From Candidatus Poribacteria bacterium (lineage in GTDB: Bacteria > Poribacteria > WGA-4E > PCPOR2b), in the NCBI GenBank assembly GCA_965208675.1, contig OZ242351.1:3296001-3360000 (forward strand): a DNA stretch of 64,000 nucleotides. Direction: 5' to 3'. Under the pieces are notes generated by a model. The model did not search any database, had not been told where the DNA came from, and worked only from the letters and a program-made list of their open reading frames with translations. This document shows, piece after piece, positions 11,898 to 55,919 of this stretch. A program made the translations under genes and the position numbers. Position 1 is the first letter of the stretch; each line of letters begins with the position of its first letter.

Positions 11898-14800
11898 TCA
11901 CAATACTTTAACAACGACCACCGTCATATCATCAGCGAGTTCGGTAGGTGCAGTAAATGTCCGGACATCGTTCAGGATAGTATCTACCCATCCCTGCGAG
12001 GGCTTCCGCTGATAAACGAGTGCTTTTAATACATTCCACATCCGAATTCTCTCGTATTCGCCCTCGTCAGCATTTCTAGCTTCCGTCAGCCCATCGCTGA
12101 AAAGCAATAGCACATCACCCTTGTACAACTTAATGGGTGCCCCGATGTGTTCCGCGCGAAATGAACACCCGAGCGGTACCGTGCTTTTGATTTCCAACTC
12201 CACGGATTGGCCTTTCCTCAACAAAATCGGTTCGGGAAGACCTGCGTTGAAATGTGTCAGCGTATTATCTTGAAGATTGAATTGCGCGAACGATGTCGCG
12301 ACAAATGCTCTTTTGGGAAGGATTTCTTGAAGTGATTGGTGCATCTTTAACAGTATTTCAGACGGAAAACTTCCCCTGCGGCTTTCCAATTGCAGCATGC
12401 CGTTGGCGAGAAATGCATTCGTTGCTGCTGCCATGCCATGGCCAGTTACATCCATCAACACGATGCCAAACTGCGTTTTATCCTCGTCTAGCCAAAGGTA
12501 TGTAAAGTAATCCCCACCGACTTCTGTTGCAGGTTCACAGACAGCAGCAATATCAAAACCTTCAATATGTGGTGCAGTTTCGGGCAACAGAGACAGTTGC
12601 ATTTCACGTGCTGTCTTGATTTCCTCAACAGCAATACGTTGGTAGGCGATTACCTGCCTGCGGCGTTTAAGTAAGACTACCGCCTGCATCACGAGCATCC
12701 CGACCACAATCGCGCTGCCGCCAACCGCCGGCACGAGGAAAAGAGCCGTTTCATGAAATGGCGTCGGTACCGTGAAATTTAGAGTCGTAGGGCTGGAATA
12801 GTTAAAATCACGGTCGACCGCTTGTATTTCGAATGCGTAGTCGCCTGGCAAAAGGTTAAAATATTGGATTTCTTCCGCATTGATTGGAGGTTGCCAATCG
12901 ACTTCTTTTCCGATTAGCCGGTGATAATATCGCATCCCTCCTGGTCGAGTTTTGAAACTGACGGCGTTGAAACTGAAAACCACGCGTTTGACTCCGGCGG
13001 GTAACGTGAGAAAATCTGCCGGCGCTTCGTAGACCTGGTCGTCGGCAGCGACTCTCGTGATGGCCACAGGCAACTCAACTTTCTTCGGTCGGTTAAACCG
13101 GATGGCCCCACCGCCTAGCGTCCCGACCCAAACTGCTCCGTTGCTATCCATATACACAGATGTCACGCTGTCATTCGGCAGGCCGTCTCGCGAGTCGATG
13201 GTTTGAAACGTCCTGCCGTCATAGCGGCTGATTCCACCGTCGACCGTTCCAAACCACATCACGCCCTCCGTATCTTGAATAATTGCGCCGATATAGTGGC
13301 TTCCAAGCCCGTCTGCAATGGTATAGGATGTCCAATTCGTCCCATCAAATCGGCTGACCCCTCCGCCGAACGTTCCGAACCACATGTCTCCTTTTTGGTC
13401 TTCGAAAATGGATAAAACCGTGTTATTTGCCAAGCCGTCCGCCGTAGTGTAAGTAATCCAATTTTCGCCGTCAAATCGGCCTACGCCATACCCGGGGTCA
13501 ATTTGTCCTCCTGTACCAAACCATAATGCCCCTTGCCGATCTTGAAATATTGATGAAACGGTGTTTTTCGGCAACCCGTCCACCTCAGTGACTGTTGTCC
13601 AATTCTTCCCATCAAACCGAACGACCCCCTTTCCAGGGTTCATTTGACTTCCCGTCGCGAACCAGATGTGACCATCGGCATCTTCAAGGATTGCGCTTAC
13701 GCTGTCCACCATAAACCCGTTTTGTCGGGTATAGTGTGTCCAGCGCTTTCCATCGAAGCGGCTGATACCCCCCCGATGCTTCGCAACCCAAATCAAACCT
13801 TCTTTATCTTTGAGAATCACATTCATAGGACCAAATTTCAAATCGTCCTCTCTGGTATAAGTTTGCCAGTTTACTCCATCAAATCGGCTGACACCGCCAA
13901 ACGTCCCGAACCACATTGCGCCGCTATCATCTTGTCGGATGGCGTGCACCTTGTCGCTCGGCAAACCGTCTTTTTGCGTGTACACGGTCCAACTTCTCGT
14001 ATCCAACCGACTGACGCCGCCGCCGAGCGTGCCGAACCAGATGGCGCCCTCCCTGTCTTGCATGAGCGCAAATACAGAGTTGCTAGCTAATCCATCTGCG
14101 GATGTATATGATTCCCATTTCTTGCCATCATACCTAGAAACGCCGCCAGTTTCGGTTCCGAACCACAACATTCCCGTGTCGTCCTCCATCATGGTGTGGA
14201 CGACATCATCAGCCAATCCATCGCTTCTGGTAATGGCGTGCCACCCTTCGCCGTCAAATCGCTTGACGCCTGCGCCGATAGTCCCCGCCAAAATGTCGCC
14301 AGATTGGGTTTCAAGCAGCGCGGTCACGCGCGAGATTGCGCCATCTTGATTTTCCTGTGAAGGGATAGCAGACGGGGTAGTTAGATTAATTTTAATCCAA
14401 TTCTCTCCATCATACCGCTTGAGTCCGTCCATCGTCCCGGCCAAAATGTTTCCTTCTCTGTCTTGAAGTAGGGCTGTTACCCAACGATACCGCCCGGCTA
14501 CGTGAACGGTACGCCACTCCCGCCCGGCGTATCGTACAATACCGCGTCGCGTTCCTGCCCAGATAACGCCTTCTCGATCAATGAGAAGCGCCGTTACTTC
14601 TCCCGACTTTTGATTTGAGGCGTCTTCAAAGGCAACACGGCGCCACTCGTTCCCGTCATAGCGGCAAAGTCCACGATTCGTTGCTGCCCAGATAGCGCCA
14701 GTTCGATCTTGCCGAAGCGCCCGAACCGTGGCACCGGCAAGACCGTCCTTTTCGGTGTAGTTAATCCAATTTCTCCCATCAAACCGGCTTACACCGTCCT

Positions 14801-18108: not shown

Positions 18109-18350
18109 TTGCCATTGGCAAACGTAAGGCATTAGCGGGCAAAAACGTGGAACCCCCAATAGCGCCGCACGGATTTTTCATTTATCCCGTCCAGCAGAAC
18201 CTGGGTGTTTATGCACCTCCTTCCTCCTTGTCAAGGCGGGGAATGATTCAGAAAAATCCTCCCCCTTATCAAGCTTACTATTACCCACAAGTCCAGAAAT
18301 TTGCACGGAGCCGCGCTGTGGGAGGGAAATCCTTCTCCCGATTGTCGAGA

Positions 18351-18405
18351 ATCAAGCGACCGAATAGGGAGCATCAACTGAGCGGATAGCGAAGGCGATA
18401 GTCTT
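18351..18405 (+). repeat. 33-nt hairpin element: truncated copy (18351-18372) plus full copy (18373-18405)
   Basis: ATCAAGCGACCGAATAGGGAGC followed by ATCAACTGAGCGGATAGCGAAGGCGATAGTCTT. Confidence 0.9.
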
Positions 18406-18477
18406 AAAATGCCTCTCCAACAGTGAGAACGCCTTGTCGGCTCATTACAATAATCATTCCCCTCCTTACCAAGGAGC

Positions 18478-18510
18478 ATCAACTGACCGATTAGGGAAGG
18501 CGATAGTTTT
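18478..18510 (+). repeat. 33-nt hairpin element
   Basis: ATCAACTGACCGATTAGGGAAGGCGATAGTTTT. Confidence 0.9.
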
Positions 18511-18725
18511 TATAGTTCTTATAGGTTGGGTTGTGCGCTGTTTCTAGCACCCTCCATTAAGATGTAGGTAATAGTAAGCTTAGTAAGGGGGAGATTTATT
18601 CCGACGAACATTGCCGCGATTCGGAGATTGCGCCTACGGAACCTACAAGAACTAGCGAATATGTGCCGTGAGTTGGAGATTGCGCTTACCGAAGGTGCGA
18701 GAACGGTTGGAGGGGCGGCGAGGTT

Positions 18726-22006: not shown

Positions 22007-22039
22007 AAGACTATCGTCTTCGCTATTCGCTCAGTTAAT
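22007..22039 (-). repeat. 33-nt hairpin element
   Basis: Reverse complement reads ATTAACTGAGCGAATAGCGAAGACGATAGTCTT. Confidence 0.88.
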
Positions 22040-22415: not shown

Positions 22416-22448
22416 AAGACTATCGCCTTCGCTATTCGCTCAGTTGAT
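22416..22448 (-). repeat. 33-nt hairpin element inside a REP-like unit
   Basis: Reverse complement reads ATCAACTGAGCGAATAGCGAAGGCGATAGTCTT. Flanked by GTTGGGTTTCG and CTCTACCCAACCTAC. Confidence 0.9.
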
Positions 22449-38443: not shown

Positions 38444-39379
38444 ATGACACACGTTCTGGTAACTGGCGGAGCCGGCTACATCGGCGCGATTCTTTGCGAG
38501 CACCTTCTATCTGAAGGCTTCAGCGTGACTGTCCTCGACAACTTGGTGTACCGTCAGGGCAGCCTCTTCCACCTCTGCGCCCATCCAGCCTTTGATTTCG
38601 TCAAGGGCGATGCCCGCGATGAAGAACTCATACGCCATCTTGTGAAGGATGTTGATGTGCTCATTCCACTTACAGCGGTCGTCGGTGCTCCTGCCTGCGA
38701 CCGCGATCCATGGCTGGCAAAATCGGTGAATCTGGAATCGGTACGGTTGCTTAATCGACTGAGATCACCGCAGCAGTTGGTTATCTTTCCTACAACGAAC
38801 AGCGGTTACGGGGCGCAGTCCGGGGAGACATATTGTACAGAAGACACACCGCTGCAGCCGATCTCGTTCTACGGTCAGACGAAGGCGCAGGCGGAGGCGG
38901 AGATACTAGATAGCCCGAACAGCATAACCTTGCGTCTCGCAACGGTGTTCGGTATGTCGCCCCGTATGCGTCTAGACTTGCTGGTGAACCATTTCGTCTA
39001 TGCAGCGGTCTCTGACGGATATATCGTCATCTTTGAGAAGGATTTCAAGCGCAACTACCTCCACGTCCGCGACGCGGCGGATTGTTTCGTTTACTGCATT
39101 GAGAATGCGGGGCGGATGAATGGCCGCCCTTACAACGTCGGATTGGACGATGCTAATCTTTCAAAGATGGAACTGGCGTTGAAGATTAAGGAACACGTAC
39201 CCAATTTCTACCTACACTTCTCCGAAATTGGCAGCGACCCGGACAAGCGCAACTACATCGTTTCCAATCAGCGGTTGCGGGAAGCTGGATTTGAGGCGAA
39301 GCGTTCACTGGACGATGGGATAAAAGAGTTGCTGAAAGGGTATCGAATGTTGGGACGGGCGCCATTCAAGAATGCCTGA
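38444..39379 (+). CDS. NAD-dependent epimerase/dehydratase (extended SDR)
   Basis: GGAGYIG, YGQTK and LRLATVFGMSPRMRLDLLVN. Confidence 0.9.
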   Translation: MTHVLVTGGAGYIGAILCEHLLSEGFSVTVLDNLVYRQGSLFHLCAHPAFDFVKGDARDEELIRHLVKDVDVLIPLTAVVGAPACDRDPWLAKSVNLESVRLLNRLRSPQQLVIFPTTNSGYGAQSGETYCTEDTPLQPISFYGQTKAQAEAEILDSPNSITLRLATVFGMSPRMRLDLLVNHFVYAAVSDGYIVIFEKDFKRNYLHVRDAADCFVYCIENAGRMNGRPYNVGLDDANLSKMELALKIKEHVPNFYLHFSEIGSDPDKRNYIVSNQRLREAGFEAKRSLDDGIKELLKGYRMLGRAPFKNA

Positions 39380-39390
39380 GAGGGAGAGAT

Positions 39391-39650
39391 TCCCCCCTTA
39401 TCAGGCTTACTATTACCCACAAGTCCAGAAATTCGCACGGAGCCACGCTGTGGGAGGGAGATCCTTCTCCCGATTATCGAGAATCAAGCGACCGAATAGG
39501 GAGCGCGATAGTTTTAAATGCCTCTCCCACAGTAAGGACGCCTTGTTGGTTCTATCATAATCATTCCCCTCCTTACCAAGGAGGATCAACTGACCGAATA
39601 GGGAAGGCGATAGTTTTTATAATTCTTCCTAGTTCTTGTAGGTTGGATTG
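39391..39650 (+). repeat. Approximately 260-bp composite dispersed repeat, copy B (contains 33-nt elements at 39483-39515 and 39585-39617)
   Basis: Aligns with 18260-18533. Confidence 0.92.
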
Positions 39651-39727
39651 AGCATCCTCTCGAAACCCAACCTTCGCGGATTCTTAAGAATGTCTAAAAG
39701 AAACGAGAATTAAGGGACGGACAGCAA

Positions 39728-45840: not shown

Positions 45841-45924
45841 TTTAGTTGCGGAACTGGAAACCTTAACGTAACTGGATTGAACGGGGGAAGGGGCACACGT
45901 TTTCTCGGCAATGCGCATTCGCCT
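45841..45924 (+). pseudogene. Relic of the 3' end of a third PD40 paralog
   Basis: Translates to FSCGTGNLNVTGLNGGRGTRFLGNAHSP, compared with FSRGDGNIYLTKLGGGGITRYFNNAHSP in 47957..49897. Confidence 0.7.
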
Positions 45925-45962
45925 GCAATCAACTCGCTTAGCATCGTATAGCGTTAGGAGAC

Positions 45963-47867
45963 ATGACCATGATGATTATAGCGAAATGCCATCAGCAAAC
46001 CAATACATGTGATGCGAATCGTTACTTGTCGGCACGAGTTGAGGTCGTCACACATTTTGTTATTTTGTTGCTCCTGATGAATTTCATTGTTTTTCCGGCA
46101 AATGCCCAAAATCTACAAGAGCAGATTGTGTTTGTGTCTGAATTGGGAGACATTCAACAAATACATCTCAGCATGCCCGGAGGCGGTCAAATTCAAAAAC
46201 TTACTTTACAACATAAACGCTATGCCACACCATCATTGTCGTTTGATGGAGAACGGGTTGCGTTTGCATCGGCAGACCGTAGAAGTCGAAACTATGACAT
46301 TTTTGTTATGGATATACAATCTCGAGAGCAGCGTCGCGTGACATTTGCGGGAAGCTTAGACATTCATCCTTCTTGGGCGCCTGATGGAAGTCGGATTGTG
46401 TTCGCTTCAGATGCAGGAGGAGTTTTCAATCTCTACACCGTGGATGAGAATGGGGAAAACCGCACCCGCCTGACGAATAGTTCGGGTGACGATATCCATC
46501 CTGACTGGTCTCCGGACGGGAGCAAAATAGCGTTCGCGTCGGATCAGGCAAGCGCAGTTCATCAGGCTTACTGGCTGAATCCTAGAACAGGACACCAAAA
46601 GCAATTGACTCAAATCAGTTTTGGAATTGATTACCCGCGATGGTCGCCTGATGGGGCAAAAATAGCATTCTTTTCGGCAGTTCGCGACAGGGAACGATGG
46701 CCAGTCGGCAACAGGCAAATTTGGCAAGTCAGCGCCGATGGAACCGGCTTAAAGAGTCTAATTACAGACGGCGACTACAATGATGAGCCAGTCATTTCTC
46801 ATGACTTAAAGTGTATTGCCTTTAAATCTACGAGAGACGATAACACGGACATTTATATCTTCAATCGGGATTCCCGAAAAATTCTGCGTCTAACTCGCCA
46901 CCCATCTTACGATTCGCGGCCGAGTTGGTCGCCGGACGGTAAACATCTAGTGTTCGTTTCTCGCAGATCTGACAACGCTGACATTTATAAGATTAACGCC
47001 GATGGCGGCGGGCTTGTGAATCTGACTCGCAGCGATGCCGATGAATCTATGCCGGTTTGGTCTCCGAAGGGGGACACAATCTGTTTCGTGCGAAATGTAG
47101 ATGGAAGGCGGGAGATTCGTGTGATGGACAGTAATGGGAAGCGTCAAATGCGGCTGGATAATAGCCCATTCTACAGCTCACCGCCGACATGGTTGCCGCG
47201 AGGAGATAAGATTGCCTTTGTGAGTAAACCCGTTCAGCTTGGTAGGGATTATCGTATCTATACAATGGATACGGATGGGCAGAATAAGCGACTGTTGTTT
47301 AGGACAGTAGATGGCGAAGTTCGAAAAATCAGTTGGTCTGCGGATGGCAAGCAAATGCTGTTTGTCCATTACGCCAATGGGGTTCACGAAATTCGTATGC
47401 TTGATGTGATTACACGAAAGGTTAGCACAATAAATTTGAATTTGAAGGTGGTTGCGCCTGACAACGCGGCTTGGGCGCCTTTAGGCAGGACGATTGTGTT
47501 TTCAGCTTTACCAATAAATCGACTACGGTCCGCCTTACGATATGGCATTCTCTTGATTGACGCCGACAGCGATAAAACTCAAGAACCAGAACCCGTATGG
47601 GATACCTTCAGTCCCGACCCGATTCGATTACCCGACAGAAGAGCATGTTTTTCGTGGTCGCCGGATGGGCAAAACTTGCTTTTTGGTCGCGGAGATTCTG
47701 AGAACCTCTACCAAACTGGATTAAGCGGGGCAGGCGTCACACGTTTTCGCAGAGATGCCCATTCACCGGATTGGAAAACCCCTCGCGTCTGGCGGAGTGT
47801 AACACCCAAGAACAAGCTGCATACAACTTGGGGAGAAGTCAAAGAAATAAACCGTGCCCAGGATTAA
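45963..47867 (+). CDS. TolB-like PD40 double beta-propeller protein, exported
   Basis: Many P.WSPDG..IAF repeats, a signal segment and C-terminal VTPKNKLHTTWGEVK. Confidence 0.9.
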   Translation: MTMMIIAKCHQQTNTCDANRYLSARVEVVTHFVILLLLMNFIVFPANAQNLQEQIVFVSELGDIQQIHLSMPGGGQIQKLTLQHKRYATPSLSFDGERVAFASADRRSRNYDIFVMDIQSREQRRVTFAGSLDIHPSWAPDGSRIVFASDAGGVFNLYTVDENGENRTRLTNSSGDDIHPDWSPDGSKIAFASDQASAVHQAYWLNPRTGHQKQLTQISFGIDYPRWSPDGAKIAFFSAVRDRERWPVGNRQIWQVSADGTGLKSLITDGDYNDEPVISHDLKCIAFKSTRDDNTDIYIFNRDSRKILRLTRHPSYDSRPSWSPDGKHLVFVSRRSDNADIYKINADGGGLVNLTRSDADESMPVWSPKGDTICFVRNVDGRREIRVMDSNGKRQMRLDNSPFYSSPPTWLPRGDKIAFVSKPVQLGRDYRIYTMDTDGQNKRLLFRTVDGEVRKISWSADGKQMLFVHYANGVHEIRMLDVITRKVSTINLNLKVVAPDNAAWAPLGRTIVFSALPINRLRSALRYGILLIDADSDKTQEPEPVWDTFSPDPIRLPDRRACFSWSPDGQNLLFGRGDSENLYQTGLSGAGVTRFRRDAHSPDWKTPRVWRSVTPKNKLHTTWGEVKEINRAQD

Positions 47868-47956
47868 CCCTTGGCGATATCTTCAGCGACACTGATTCTA
47901 GTCGGAAAGTCAACAATTGCAATCAACTCGCTTAGTATCGTATAGCGTTAGGAGAT

Positions 47957-49897
47957 ATGACCATGATGATTATAACGAAATGCCATCAACGAACCAATAC
48001 ATGTGATGCGAATCGTTACTTGTCGGCACGAATTGAGTTCGTTCCACATTTTTTTGTATTATTGCTCATGATGAATTTCAGTGTTTTTTCCTCAGATGCC
48101 CAAAATCAACAAGAGCAAATTGTGTTTGTGGCTGAGGTCGCAGACCTTGAACAAATACACCTAAGAAAGGCTGGAGGCGGTCGAGTTAAAACTAATAAGC
48201 TCACATTACAAGAGCCAACAGGAAGCTATTTAACACCATCACTATCGTTTGATGGAGAACAGGTTGCATTTGCCTCTCGACTTGGACGAAACTATGATAT
48301 CTATGTTATGGAGCTACAGTCTCGTAAGCAGCGCCGCGTGACGTTTGCGCCAAGTCGGGACCTTTATCCGTCTTGGGCGCCCGATGGAAGTCGGATTGCC
48401 TTTGCTTCGGACAAAGAGGGAGTTTTCAATCTCTATACCATCGAAAAAAATGGAGAAAACCGCACCCGTCTGACAAATAGTTCGGGCGACGACATCCAGC
48501 CTGACTGGTCTCCGGACGGGAGCAAAATAGCGTTCGCATCTGATCAGGCGAGCGCGGTGCATCAAGTTTACTGGATGCATGTCCGAACAGGGCACCAACA
48601 GCAACTGACACAAAGGACTTTTCATATCCGGTACCCGAGATGGTCACCTGATGGGACAAGGGTGGCATTCTATTCGGGAGTGTCTGCTTGGGTGCCGCCA
48701 CTCGGCAAAAGGCAAATTTGGCAGGTCAGCGCGGATGGAACCGGTTTAAAAAGCCTAATCACTGACGGCGACTACAATGATGACCCGGTTGTTTCTCATG
48801 ACTTAAAGCGTATTGCTTTTACATCAACGAGAGACGGTAACACGGACATTTATACCTACGATAGGGATTCGATGCAAATTCACCGCATAACGCATGACCC
48901 GTCTGACGATTATCAGCCGAGTTGGTCTCCGGACGGCAAACACCTTGTTTTTGTTTCTGACAGAACGGGCAACCCTGATATTTACAAGATGAACGCCGAT
49001 GGCGGCGGGATTGTTAGGTTGACTCGAAGCGATGCCGATGAAACTATGCCGGCTTGGTCTCCAAGAGGCGACATGATTTGTTTCGTGCGAAAGGTAGGAG
49101 ATGATTTAGTTGGAAGACGGGAGATTCGTGTGATGGCCAGCAACGGCAACGGTCAAATGCGGCTGGATTATATACCGCATTCAAACAGATTTCCGGCATG
49201 GTCGCCGAAAGCGGATAAGATTGCCTTTGTGAATAGGCCCGAACGGCTCTCTAGGGTTGTTCGCATCTATACAGTTGATATAGATGGACAGAATAAACGA
49301 TTGTTATTTGAGACATTAGATGGTGCAATCAGAAAAATCAGTTGGTCTCCGAATGGCAGGCAAATCGCGTTTGTCTATCACTCTTCACGTGATGGGATTC
49401 TTCAAGAAATCCGCATACTTAATGTGCATACACGAAAGGTCAACACAATTGAAATTGAATTGAAGGTGGTCGATAATTTTAAGGTAGTTGAGTTTCAAAA
49501 TGCTGCTTGGGCACCAATAGGCAGGACGATAGTGTTTTCAGGTATGCCATTACGTCCAGTGTCCACCGTACCCCCTTTCCGCTATGGCATTTTCTTGGCG
49601 GACGCCGATGGCGATAAGACTCAAGAACCAGAACCCTTATGGGATACCTTCATCCCCAAGAAGCAATACCCATACAAAAAAGAACGTTTTTCGTGGTCTC
49701 CGGATGGGGATAGCATCCTATTTAGCCGAGGAGATGGAAACATTTACTTAACAAAGTTGGGTGGTGGAGGGATTACACGTTACTTTAACAATGCGCATTC
49801 ACCGGATTGGAAGACGCCTCGTGTCTGGCGGAGCGTAACTCCCAAGAACAAGCTGCAAACAACTTGGGGTGAAGTCAAAGAAATAATCCGTAACTAA
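47957..49897 (+). CDS. TolB-like PD40 double beta-propeller protein, tandem paralog
   Basis: Colinear with the previous gene, including about 40 bp of upstream DNA. C-terminal VTPKNKLQTTWGEVK. Confidence 0.9.
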   Translation: MTMMIITKCHQRTNTCDANRYLSARIEFVPHFFVLLLMMNFSVFSSDAQNQQEQIVFVAEVADLEQIHLRKAGGGRVKTNKLTLQEPTGSYLTPSLSFDGEQVAFASRLGRNYDIYVMELQSRKQRRVTFAPSRDLYPSWAPDGSRIAFASDKEGVFNLYTIEKNGENRTRLTNSSGDDIQPDWSPDGSKIAFASDQASAVHQVYWMHVRTGHQQQLTQRTFHIRYPRWSPDGTRVAFYSGVSAWVPPLGKRQIWQVSADGTGLKSLITDGDYNDDPVVSHDLKRIAFTSTRDGNTDIYTYDRDSMQIHRITHDPSDDYQPSWSPDGKHLVFVSDRTGNPDIYKMNADGGGIVRLTRSDADETMPAWSPRGDMICFVRKVGDDLVGRREIRVMASNGNGQMRLDYIPHSNRFPAWSPKADKIAFVNRPERLSRVVRIYTVDIDGQNKRLLFETLDGAIRKISWSPNGRQIAFVYHSSRDGILQEIRILNVHTRKVNTIEIELKVVDNFKVVEFQNAAWAPIGRTIVFSGMPLRPVSTVPPFRYGIFLADADGDKTQEPEPLWDTFIPKKQYPYKKERFSWSPDGDSILFSRGDGNIYLTKLGGGGITRYFNNAHSPDWKTPRVWRSVTPKNKLQTTWGEVKEIIRN

Positions 49898-50434: not shown

Positions 50435-50490
50435 ATCAACCGAGTGAATAGCGAGGGATCAAGCGACTGAATAGGGAGTGCGATAGTTTT
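50435..50490 (+). repeat. 33-nt hairpin element: truncated copy (50435-50457) plus full copy (50458-50490)
   Basis: ATCAACCGAGTGAATAGCGAGGG followed by ATCAAGCGACTGAATAGGGAGTGCGATAGTTTT. Confidence 0.9.
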
Positions 50491-52623: not shown

Positions 52624-52757
52624 AAAAACCCTGATTGAACCAAGCAATCCACAATAAATCCACCAGCAGTGATGGGATTAACCGAATGAATGATGAGGGC
52701 GATAGTATTCCAAGTCGCCAAAGTTTTGAAGTTCCCGCTAAGGAGGTAAAATCTCTA

Positions 52758-54167: not shown

Positions 54168-55919
54168 TCAAACCTTGAAGATTTCTCCTAGACGGTTGCC
54201 GAGAAATCGTCCGGCGGCGATGAGGCATGCAGTCAATATAAACATCCCAACTACACCCATTGCACTGGCGACATAGGCTCCCCCTACCGGACGTTGCGAG
54301 AGATTCCAGATGGCTTTGGTAATTGGGTTGAATTGGTCTCGCATTGACAATATTAAGCTGTCGGCGACTTCCAACATTGAGAATGAGAACACCAGAATAG
54401 ACCCAGCGATGATATTGGCTGCCACTAGCGGAAGCGTAATCTTGTAGAGTGAACGTGCTGGACTTGCGCCTAGATTCTGCGAGGCTTCCTCGAATGTAAC
54501 GCTGGTTTGCTGGAGTCCGGCATAAATCGAGCGAAGCATATACGGTAACCGCCGCACAGCGTAGCTAATGATTAGCAGTGCAATAGGGTTTTGGCGAGGG
54601 TCTAATTTTGACACAATTTGATCCGGTAGATGGCGGAGTAGCAGTGTCGTATTCGCGAAGCTTCCGACATAACCAAATGCAAGCGCCACGCCGGGGAGCG
54701 CTAAGGGTAACATCGCGATAGCATCAATTGAATTTTTGAAAGGAATGCGTTTTCGGGTGAGCAAATACGATATCAGAATGCCAAAGATGAGCGCCAGTAA
54801 GGTACTGAACGTGCTGTAAAGTAAGCTGTTCTTAATGCTAGGAAGGGTATCATTGTGAGTGAACACGGTTTCATAATGTTTCGGTGTGTAGCTTTGCGGG
54901 AAAACACTGAAATTCCATTGACTTGCATCGGGGGTTAGAGAGGTCAACACCACGCTGATGTGCGGGAGGAATGCTATGAGAAAAATTCCCCCCACCACTA
55001 TATAAATCACGAGGCGCATCCGCTTGCTGGCTTGAACTTCACGAGTGCTGACATGACCGCGTCCCAACATTGCATACTGTTTGTTGCCTGTATACCGTTT
55101 GGATACATAGAATGCGATTGCAGTTAGCAAAATAACCAAAACAACGAGTGCGTATCCCATCGGGTTAACGTTTGCGTCTGTGACTTGCCGGAAAATTTGT
55201 ACCGCAATAACTTCGTTATAGTTCAAAATTAACGGTGTGCCCAAATCAGTGAACGCCCAGATGAAAACAAGAATAGCGCCGGCGAAATAGCCGGGCAGCA
55301 TAAGCGGGAATGTAATCGTCCAAAGCACTTTGAGGCGCGAAGCACCCATGTTTTCGGCTGCTTCCTCCAGACTGCGATCTACATTGGATAGGGCAGCGAC
55401 AACGTTTAAGTACATGATTGGATAGAGGTGCAGAGTTGCTAGCAGCACTACCCCCCAAAAACCGCTGCCGAACCAGTCAATTGGTTCGGCAAATTCAATG
55501 AGTCCAATCTTCATGAGGAACATATTCACGCTGCCATACAACCCAAAAAACTTCTGCATGCCAATCGCGCCGACGAAGGGCGGCATTATTATCGGAATCA
55601 GGATGATGCCCTGCAGGGTACTCCGTCCGGGGAAGCGATAACGCGTCAAGAAATAGGCGAGGGGAAGGCTAACGAATGTTGCAGCAATTGTTACGGCGAT
55701 TCCAATCTTAAAGCTGTTAGTTACTAGTTCACGTGCGTTTCCATCCGTAACAATTAGCTTAAAATACGATAGGCTGAATCTTCCATCGATCCAAAAAGAT
55801 TCTTTGAATATGTAAAGAAGGGGATATATCAGGAATATGGTGAAGAAAAGGACAATTGGTAGGAGCAGGACGAAAACAGAGCGATCAAGCGAACGAATAG
55901 TGAGTGCGATAGTCTTCAC
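54168..55919 (-). CDS. fbpB: Fe(III)-type ABC transporter permease (FbpB-like)
   Basis: Two EAA loops (LEEAAENMGAS and FEEASQNLGAS), PPFVGA and FTDLGTPL. Confidence 0.9.
   Translation of the reverse strand: MKTIALTIRSLDRSVFVLLLPIVLFFTIFLIYPLLYIFKESFWIDGRFSLSYFKLIVTDGNARELVTNSFKIGIAVTIAATFVSLPLAYFLTRYRFPGRSTLQGIILIPIIMPPFVGAIGMQKFFGLYGSVNMFLMKIGLIEFAEPIDWFGSGFWGVVLLATLHLYPIMYLNVVAALSNVDRSLEEAAENMGASRLKVLWTITFPLMLPGYFAGAILVFIWAFTDLGTPLILNYNEVIAVQIFRQVTDANVNPMGYALVVLVILLTAIAFYVSKRYTGNKQYAMLGRGHVSTREVQASKRMRLVIYIVVGGIFLIAFLPHISVVLTSLTPDASQWNFSVFPQSYTPKHYETVFTHNDTLPSIKNSLLYSTFSTLLALIFGILISYLLTRKRIPFKNSIDAIAMLPLALPGVALAFGYVGSFANTTLLLRHLPDQIVSKLDPRQNPIALLIISYAVRRLPYMLRSIYAGLQQTSVTFEEASQNLGASPARSLYKITLPLVAANIIAGSILVFSFSMLEVADSLILSMRDQFNPITKAIWNLSQRPVGGAYVASAMGVVGMFILTACLIAAGRFLGNRLGEIFKV
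55884..55916 (+). repeat. 33-nt hairpin element forming codons 2-12 of the permease ORF
   Basis: ATCAAGCGAACGAATAGTGAGTGCGATAGTCTT; the minus strand reads KTIALTIRSLD. Confidence 0.88.

Follow-up and report, generated by a model that had tools for sequence, protein, structure and literature searches.

Our data point to a non-coding, non-autonomous mobile element of 33-34 nt, similar to the small dispersed repeats (SDRs) of Nostoc, that would insert at the feet and in the loops of hairpins, its own hairpin included; we place the probability of this reading at roughly 0.55. Such a cassette would comprise (G)ATCAA, a strand-specific 17-nt hairpin (two 2-bp helices around a tandem G.A/A.G core, closed by a GAATA loop) and the tail GCGATAGTYTT, and its copies would be pasted into foldable DNA, either within the loops of other palindromic repeats or at their 3' feet, with the loss of few target bases and no target duplication. 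The cassette's own hairpin would also serve as a target, where a newcomer would settle exactly behind the resident hairpin and displace or replace the resident tail. The expected outcome would be hairpins of different types stacked head to tail, with a single tail at the end where the stack grows. We infer that these events are gains and not losses, that they pass through single-stranded DNA and that an enzyme is involved, for which a trans-acting HUH-type nuclease is one candidate and an unrecognised activity another.

The window, i.e., the whole stretch of 64,000 nt analyzed here (G000:C1:3296001-3360000), belongs to a source genome of 4.89 Mb in a single contig (G000). It was compared with a sister genome (G002) of about 95% identity in syntenic DNA, and all comparisons with the sister genome, orthologue counts included, cover 2.8 of its 4.7 Mb. 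Array counts were all taken from a strict detector, which found 280 arrays with 362 units in the source genome (207 single, 64 double and 9 triple arrays) and 1 array in the reversed genome; an earlier, looser detector had given 352 arrays, including chance matches inside genes. GCGATAGTYTT (at most one mismatch) had 13 occurrences in the window, where shuffled sequence gave 2.33 ± 1.62 and 0 of 100 shuffles reached 13. The excess of both this motif and the arrays over their controls is beyond chance.

Hairpin units, tails and the 270-bp repeat family

Each unit consists of (G)ATCAA (GATCAA in 245 and AATCAA in 58 of 410 heads) and a 17-nt hairpin, c1c2-GA-n1n2-GAATA-m1m2-GA-k1k2, in which c pairs with k and n with m, the GA dinucleotides are opposed (tandem G.A) and GAATA forms the loop. 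In a covariation set of 96 distinct cassettes, picked by the tail alone from the sister genome and the window, the inner helix was 89.1% paired, all four pairs varied on both sides, and 111 double-change cells were counted, compared with 43.8 ± 4.6 after shuffling (reached in 0 of 500 shuffles) and at most 13 in slid controls. All four pairs were formed in 141 of the 170 units with an exact core. The hairpin fold is specific to the plus strand, with G.T exceeding A.C at pair 1 (62 vs 15) and pair 4 (60 vs 12), while pairs 2 and 3 were unbiased. Under RNA parameters, the mean folding energy was -1.88 kcal/mol on the plus strand and -0.42 kcal/mol on the minus strand, the plus strand being the lower in 266 of 338 units, and the fold ((..((.....))..)) was obtained in 198 of 338; under DNA parameters the fold was marginal, and mostly the inner 2-bp stem alone was predicted. 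The ATC of the head could pair with the GAT of the tail or with that of the next GATCAA, in columns that are nearly invariant. Cassettes of a second genus of the phylum (g11) additionally carried the pair types AC..GT, GT..AC, AG..CT, GG..CC and AT..AT.

The features of the window that bear on this element are as follows.

18261..18530, plus strand: copy A, a composite repeat of about 270 bp with REP-like arms and two cassette sites (alignment to copy B; 10-copy family)
18316..18349, plus strand: left arm of the host palindrome, CTGTGGGAGGGAAATCCTTCTCCCGATTGTCGAG (this repeat also lies beside a RAYT gene at another genomic location)
18351..18372, plus strand: unit 1, resident, ATCAA and hairpin GCGACC-GAATA-GGGAGC (sequence, alignment)
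18373..18394, plus strand: unit 2, the extra 22 nt, ATCAA and hairpin CTGAGC-GGATA-GCGAAG, of another covariant type (alignment gap)
18395..18405, plus strand: tail of the copy A doublet, GCGATAGTCTT (GCGATAGTYTT search)
18406..18423, plus strand: right arm of the host palindrome, AAAATGCCTCTCCAACAG (sequence, family alignment)
18478..18510, plus strand: second cassette of copy A, single, at the 3' foot of hairpin CCTCCTTACCAAGGAG
22007..22039, minus strand: single cassette with tail ACGATAGTCTT
22416..22448, minus strand: single cassette in the loop of the GTAGGTTGGGTAGAG...GAAACCCAAC palindrome
39483..39515, plus strand: copy B site, one unit and tail, 'empty' as regards unit 2 (alignment, family)
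39585..39617, plus strand: second cassette of copy B, single (alignment)
50435..50490, plus strand: doublet of unit CC.GT, a G, unit GC.CT and the tail (the sister-genome orthologue holds the first unit only; case 2)
52677..52709, plus strand: single cassette, decayed
55884..55916, plus strand: single cassette, type GC.AC

According to the original prediction, copy B of the 270-bp repeat holds one element and copy A an added, different variant. Alignment of window positions 18150-18600 with 39280-39720 confirmed this: the copies are alike from about 18261/39393 to 18530/39640 (copy B spanning 39393-39640), and the one long internal gap is the 22-nt ATCAACTGAGCGGATAGCGAAG (18373-18394), placed between ...GGGAGC and GCGATAGT. 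This gap cannot be slid, as its flanking bases differ, and thus no target duplication accompanies it. The tails are also unlike, with GTCTTAAAA in copy A against GTTTT-AAA in copy B and GTTTTAR in the four one-unit copies. A related pair at 50435/50458, for which a junction shifted by 1 nt had been noted, indeed consists of two complete units at a 23-nt spacing and then GCGATAGTTTT, the shift being the G of GATCAA.

The source genome holds 10 copies of the 270-bp family, in which one and the same site carries no unit (three copies), one unit (five), two units (copy A) or three units (one). The copies without a unit read GTCGAG|GCAGGG|ATGCCTCTCC and have no tail. Four of the one-unit copies consist of unit GC.CC and a tail, and the fifth has a unit of another type. 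In the three-unit copy (1921558, minus strand), the second unit resembles the insert of copy A, with the same rare GGATA loop, and a third unit stands behind it, followed by a new tail and another 16 nt. Unit 2 of copy A is represented by a diverged version in the three-unit copy and is missing from the four one-unit copies. Aligning all copies and tabulating their length changes, as had been proposed, yielded this 0/1/2/3-unit series; the length changes were not of one size, being +22 nt in copy A and 33-35 nt at orthologous sites (see below).

Copy A lies between convergent genes for a BNR-domain protein and a Big_1/LRR protein, and copy B between an epimerase and a GHMP kinase gene; the epimerase gene is too conserved for a taxonomic placement. 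The sister genome has no orthologue of copy A, as the segment 18274-22519 is wholly missing at the syntenic site, where the flanks are only 15 nt apart. This segment of 4.2 kb carries the Big_1/LRR surface-protein gene, with the 270-bp repeat as its left border and a palindrome plus cassette as its right; a 91%-identical copy of the gene, without the 270-bp repeat, is found elsewhere in the sister genome. Judged from these borders, the difference looks like a repeat-bounded move of the gene. Among public runs, the stretch is present in sponge metagenomes and in none of the RNA runs listed; the sponge-metagenome contigs end at the repeat, and none of the pieces listed spans 18343-18377. Three public runs contain the form without a unit, with GCAGGG between 18349 and 18409, which probably derives from paralogous copies.

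Filled and empty orthologous sites

The limits of the spreading piece were evident from the 33-mer ATCAACTGAGCGRATAGCGAAGGCGATAGTCTT (at most one mismatch), which occurs 32 times in the source genome and 11 times in the 2.8 Mb of the sister genome. Likeness among its copies begins at ATCAA and stops after GTCTT, with unrelated flanks on both sides. Behind 248 of the 280 arrays, a tail matches GCGATAGT at no fewer than 7 of 8 positions. Mapping between the two genomes (both 200-nt flanks with at least 90% identity) gave 79 array records, some of them reciprocal duplicates, with 60 of equal and 19 of differing length. In case 7, 33 nt replace 7, with CTGATAAGG followed by GGGGCTAG and GGGGG on one side and ...GG followed by ATCAA..GCGATAGTTTT and GGGGG on the other. 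Case 6 (39 nt in place of 4) and case 11 (36 nt in place of 7) have cassette-less orthologues that lack the tail, as does one further orthologous empty site beyond these three. In case 4, 35 nt (the cassette) stand in place of a 73-nt loop. Because unit-less sites lack a tail and the 33-mer is sharply bounded, the tail is part of the element and not its target.

Unit-number differences at orthologous sites on the tail side (n = 3) measured 35, 35 and 33 nt and not 22-23 nt. In case 2 (50435-50490), the sister genome reads ...GCGAGG|GCGATAGTGTTTATCAGG and the source genome ...GCGAGG|GATCAAGCGACTGAATAGGGAGT GCGATAGTTTTACTT|ATAGTGTTTATCAGG; the latter has an added unit and a new tail, and a remnant of the old tail, ATAGTGTTT, persists downstream. 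In case 10, a minus-strand cassette of the source genome (G000:C1:3219184-3219216) lies in frame within an open frame of 2186 codons, and its orthologue has a second unit, +33 nt, with the frame kept. Losses were also seen: case 9 lacks 23 nt, and case 3 is a precise deletion of 163 nt, from the hairpin end to the next GATCAA, which makes a doublet with 1-nt microhomology.

The two options for the mobile unit in the original prediction fared differently against these sites. A piece of about 33 nt that overwrites the resident tail fits the observations better, and the view of GCGATAGTYTT as a pre-existing target did not hold, given the unit-less sites without a tail. The net gain of copy A, +22 (+1) nt, would fit a cassette that replaced the entire old tail; insertion of a bare 22-mer may be an alternative for that single case. 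As a general account, mobility of a bare hairpin unit of 22-23 nt that integrates just 5' of a GCGATAGTYTT target appears improbable to us. It draws on the clean 22-nt difference between copies A and B and on the 23-nt spacing at 53 of 82 junctions between adjacent units, but unit-less sites lack GCGATAGT, so the tail comes with the first unit; moreover, the three orthologous differences amount to 33-35 nt, and the tail of copy A, GTCTTAAAA, is unlike the GTTTTAR of all four one-unit copies.

The 3' limit of added DNA was ragged, ending 0 to 16 nt past the tail, which is easier to reconcile with templated copying from a donor than with a transposon whose two ends are fixed. Many of the hosts are multi-copy repeats, and gene conversion between their copies could mimic insertion. 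An account without any dedicated mobility, in which ectopic gene conversion or replication template switching patches cassettes in where hairpins stall synthesis, a stalled or nicked strand copying 35-50 nt elsewhere and returning, is in our estimation unlikely but worth weighing. The ragged 3' limits, including the 16 extra nt behind the third unit of the three-unit copy, are in its favor, as are the replacement of few target bases without duplication, the interchange of long-loop and cassette forms of one palindrome (case 4 and two LONG cases), the 163-nt deletion of case 3 that joins unit borders at 1-nt microhomology, and the negative search for a cognate enzyme. However, conversion tracts should vary at both ends, whereas 32 copies share their 33-nt limits despite unrelated surroundings and the 5' limit is always (G)ATCAA. 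Cassettes also occur in unique DNA, such as the 2186-codon open frame, and a wholesale swap of unit type was seen in 0 of the 60 same-length orthologous records. Against a mobile cassette also stand the negative enzyme search, the deletions that stop at unit borders (cases 3 and 9), the gain of +22 rather than +33 nt in copy A and the presence of a clear stem of at least 6 bp at only about one-fifth of the arrays.

Stacking, landing sites and decay

The spacing of adjacent units (start to start, 82 junctions) was 23 nt in 53 cases, 18 nt in 18, 17 nt in 5 and 24 nt in 2, with single cases of 19, 22 (copy A), 37 and 40 nt. The predicted near-fixed nesting position is thus borne out as two classes, 23 nt (53/82) and 17-18 nt (23/82), with the 22 nt of copy A unique. 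In the 17-18-nt class, the leading unit ends after GAATAG. At one orthologous doublet, the full form GAATAGAGAGGGATCAA is found in the sister genome and the short form GAATAGGATCAA in the source genome; therefore, the two classes interconvert. The 23-nt junction pattern was also present in five other genomes that carry the element, with 33-172 matches each and none in controls.

Tabulation of all element tandems, which had been suggested as a check, gave non-random junctions and halves that are never of the same type. Neighbors of the same type numbered 0 among 82 adjacent pairs, compared with 9.6 expected from the type frequencies. In line with the earlier claim that slippage does not suffice for halves of different covariant types, simple slippage is excluded for the hairpin stacks because neighbors are never of the same type, and the differences fall at covarying positions. 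As an origin of the tandems in general, replication slippage or tandem duplication is scarcely credible. In G038 (C1:174704-174913), at least six near-identical copies of unit plus tail run head to tail with a 36-nt period, where whole-cassette slippage seems to happen; this run, with six copies among the matches listed, is a point in favor of slippage. So is a second tail-like ATAGTYTT within 45 nt behind the tail, found in 35 of 248 arrays against 2.3% in the control, most commonly at an offset of 11 nt and at 9-12 nt after the first tail in 23 of 248 arrays, and slippage is a possible source of such tail duplications.

The extra unit lay on the tail side in six of seven informative comparisons, namely copy A, the three-unit copy, 4712321 (three units) versus 4712465 (two units), and cases 2, 5 and 10. 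The head-side exception, case 1, is an 80-nt difference that includes other hairpin modules. In multi-unit arrays, the tail variants CTT/TTT, set against the type of the unit at one or the other end of the array, gave 6/2 versus 19/11 (p = 0.69; small numbers).

Upstream of the first unit, the context was GGGTWGAGC(G) in 49 arrays, AACCCAAC(G) in 42, a hairpin of the CCTCCTT..AAGGAGG type in 33, TAGGCGGGR in 15, GTAGGGG in 12, GTCGAGA in 9, GATAAGGG in 7 and TTGTAGG in 6; the other 107 arrays had other contexts, most of which end in GG or CG. Perfect local stems of 7 bp or more terminated precisely at the junction in 8.2% of arrays (23 of 280) compared with 1.4% of random positions, and at offsets of 3-6 nt upstream such stems were found in 0-4 arrays each (at most 1.4%). 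With the limit set at 6 bp, a stem ended within -2 to +1 of the junction in 57 of 280 arrays. These counts all include related copies. Further cassettes lie inside the loops of long palindromes. As far as can be judged from these contexts, the cassette appears to have settled in five or more families of host repeats, either at the foot of a stem or within a loop, and this placement would also account for its landing behind its own hairpin. At the junctions of the empty orthologous sites, no conserved target word was shared. The commonest host palindrome has arms, GTTGGGT ... ACCCAAC, that match the attC core words of integrons in the opposite order. The core words of attC sites are GTTRRRY and RYYYAAC, and the likeness is probably a coincidence.

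A bolder version of the preferred reading, which we regard as doubtful, is that of a structure-guided, self-targeting single-stranded DNA mini-element that would go to the 3' foot of any suitable hairpin by means of an enzyme outside the recognizable transposase families of the source genome. If it were true, the stacks would be chronological records with tail-end growth, the oldest unit lying farthest from the tail, in a CRISPR-like manner, and the rule that neighbors are never of the same type would reflect either a constraint of the mechanism or the fast loss of identical neighbors.

Divergence in the 60 same-length orthologous records was 5.6% in the arrays and 5.7% in their flanks, as would be expected of selfish DNA, and no unit-type swaps were found in these records. 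In tandem gene contexts (crude open reading frame calls), 132 arrays were co-oriented with the genes and 60 were not; a further 55 lay between convergent and 44 between divergent genes. Such co-orientation would be in keeping with plus-strand transcription as well as with insertion into the template of the lagging strand. GC skew, which is weak and irregular in this genome, gave no clear pattern of replication-strand bias. That the arrays are functional sites, as protein-binding or RNA elements in which selection keeps the hairpins distinct, strikes us as very improbable. The co-orientation (132 vs 60 in tandem contexts, from crude calls), the strand-specific fold and neighbors that are never of the same type, as independent folding would require, are consistent with such sites. 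However, the units diverge at the rate of their flanks, presence and absence alternate frequently at orthologous sites (19 of the 79 mapped records differ in length), the cassette pattern was not found in most related genera, the 64-kb window had no match to known RNA families in Rfam 15 at the gathering score, and the orientation bias is equally expected from insertion into the lagging-strand template.

Among 121 genomes of the phylum, high copy numbers were confined to genera g1 (4 of 4 genomes; 93-122 exact matches) and g11 (8 of 8; 186-466), which belong to different families, no other genus reaching high copy; outside these, three genomes had 1-2 matches. The cassette pattern was found in 0 of 82 genomes of family f2, and a control pattern in none of the 121.

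Candidate enzymes and related systems

The source genome encodes four Y1 (HUH) transposases, L001-L004 (at 2029831, 3522617, 190373 and 2071473). Two exceed the NCBIfam RAYT cut-off of 80 (scores 132.2 and 85.3), one is of the IS200 type and one falls below the cut-off. Each gene is flanked by its own hairpin repeat with 9-26 genomic copies (13-mers, both strands), such as CAAAGCCCCAGCGGGGCGACAGGTA and GTAGTAGGCACACGGAGTGTGCC, and the hairpin that flanks the single IS200-type TnpA differs from the cassette. One of these flanking repeats is the CTGTGGGAGGGAAATCC / GGATGCCTCTCCCACAG palindrome, which hosts the cassettes of copy A; overall, cassettes are inserted in copies of at least two families of Y1/RAYT-flanking repeats. 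The four genes have neither units nor tails within 2.5 kb, and none of their orthologues tracks the distribution of the cassette. The four Y1/RAYT genes were accordingly rejected as cognate partners, having their own repeats, no nearby cassette and no co-occurrence with it. Searches of the source genome for the RVT_1 reverse transcriptase, the TnpB zinc-ribbon domain and the IS110 DEDD domain gave 0 matches each, and the absence of RVT_1 is evidence against an RNA route in the source genome. The IS91 Y2 profile also gave 0 matches, equally so in control genomes. RAYT homologues occur in G005, G006, G014, G022, G029, G032 and other related genomes, many of them with exactly one in-frame TAG within the matching region.

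SDR1-8 of Nostoc punctiforme and its relatives were reportedly described by Elhai and colleagues in 2008, with an RNA route proposed. We know of no enzyme for these repeats, and to our knowledge they have been unexplained since that description and are the smallest mobile DNA of cyanobacteria. Among described kinds, the SDRs of Nostoc appear closest to the cassette, a likeness judged from descriptions rather than sequences. Both are very short and of high copy number (SDRs of 21-27 nt, units here of 22-23 nt), share a hairpin with compensatory changes (here at four of four pairs, 0 of 500 shuffles), nest in other repeats and in their own copies (here the 0/1/2/3 series and the host palindromes) and insert precisely at a fixed position. 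Our element differs in its phylum, in its spreading piece of 33-34 nt (unit plus tail), in its invariant tandem G.A core and in its one-directional growth at the tail end; there is also no RVT_1 here, which is evidence against the RNA route reportedly proposed for SDRs. SDR5 is placed between nt 3 and 4 of GCGATCGC (PMC4390886), and among HIP1-rich cyanobacteria no SDR-like repeats were found outside Nostocaceae (PMC5861425). Among the matches listed in a literature search on small dispersed repeats, titles and abstract openings placed none in another bacterium, and one REPIN paper cites SDRs; a search for Poribacteria with repetitive extragenic palindromic or MITE repeats returned nothing relevant.

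The cassette also resembles REP, BIME and REPIN sequences, which are short intergenic hairpins, mosaic, variable in number and with a strand-specific fold (Bertels & Rainey 2011, PMC3116915). The source genome encodes RAYTs, and cassettes sit within RAYT-type repeats. Unlike REPs and REPINs, however, the cassette has the head (G)ATCAA and no GTAG, no RAYT gene is flanked by it (the Y1 genes having other repeats), and it is a guest in at least five host palindromes. It also forms direct stacks (73 arrays of at least two units), with neighbors on opposite strands in 10 pairs within 150 nt and 6 within 20 nt, unlike the inverted doublets that are the replicating form of REPINs. Classification as a REP or REPIN was rejected on account of the missing GTAG, the missing cognate RAYT and the direct stacks.

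The ends of IS608 and ISDra2 have a guide-like motif on the 5' side, a short linker on the 3' side and an imperfect hairpin that contains non-Watson-Crick bases, and we take the target of ISDra2 to be TTGAT, the complement of the ATCAA of the cassette. The cassette is like such IS200/IS605 ends in its guide-like 5' motif, imperfect hairpin, 3' linker, lack of target duplication and single-stranded DNA logic. It is unlike them in having a single hairpin instead of a left and a right end and empty sites that share no junction word; furthermore, no TnpB was found, and the lone IS200-type TnpA has a different flanking hairpin. A miniature IS200/IS605 derivative was thus rejected, the cassette being without two ends and without a fixed target of 4-5 nt.

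The cassette family offers unusually clean material, from another phylum, on how mobile DNA of 20-35 nt moves. Its useful assets are the site with 0, 1, 2 or 3 units, the filled and empty orthologous sites in a 95%-identical sister genome, the sharp 33-nt limits and the hairpin with its G.A core, and its presence or absence across genera could be mined for the responsible gene. For annotation, cassettes are to be expected in intergenic regions, within other repeats and in frame in a large gene, and short-read assemblies break at them. The window contains repeats of other kinds as well. Positions 45924-49891 hold two tandem paralogous segments of about 2 kb with 76-91% identity (families D1, D2, D5, D9, D11 and others), and at 13246-14798 a periodic repeat of 123-141 nt (families D3 and D7) runs within a minus-strand gene of 1051 aa, the product of which is probably a repeat-domain protein.
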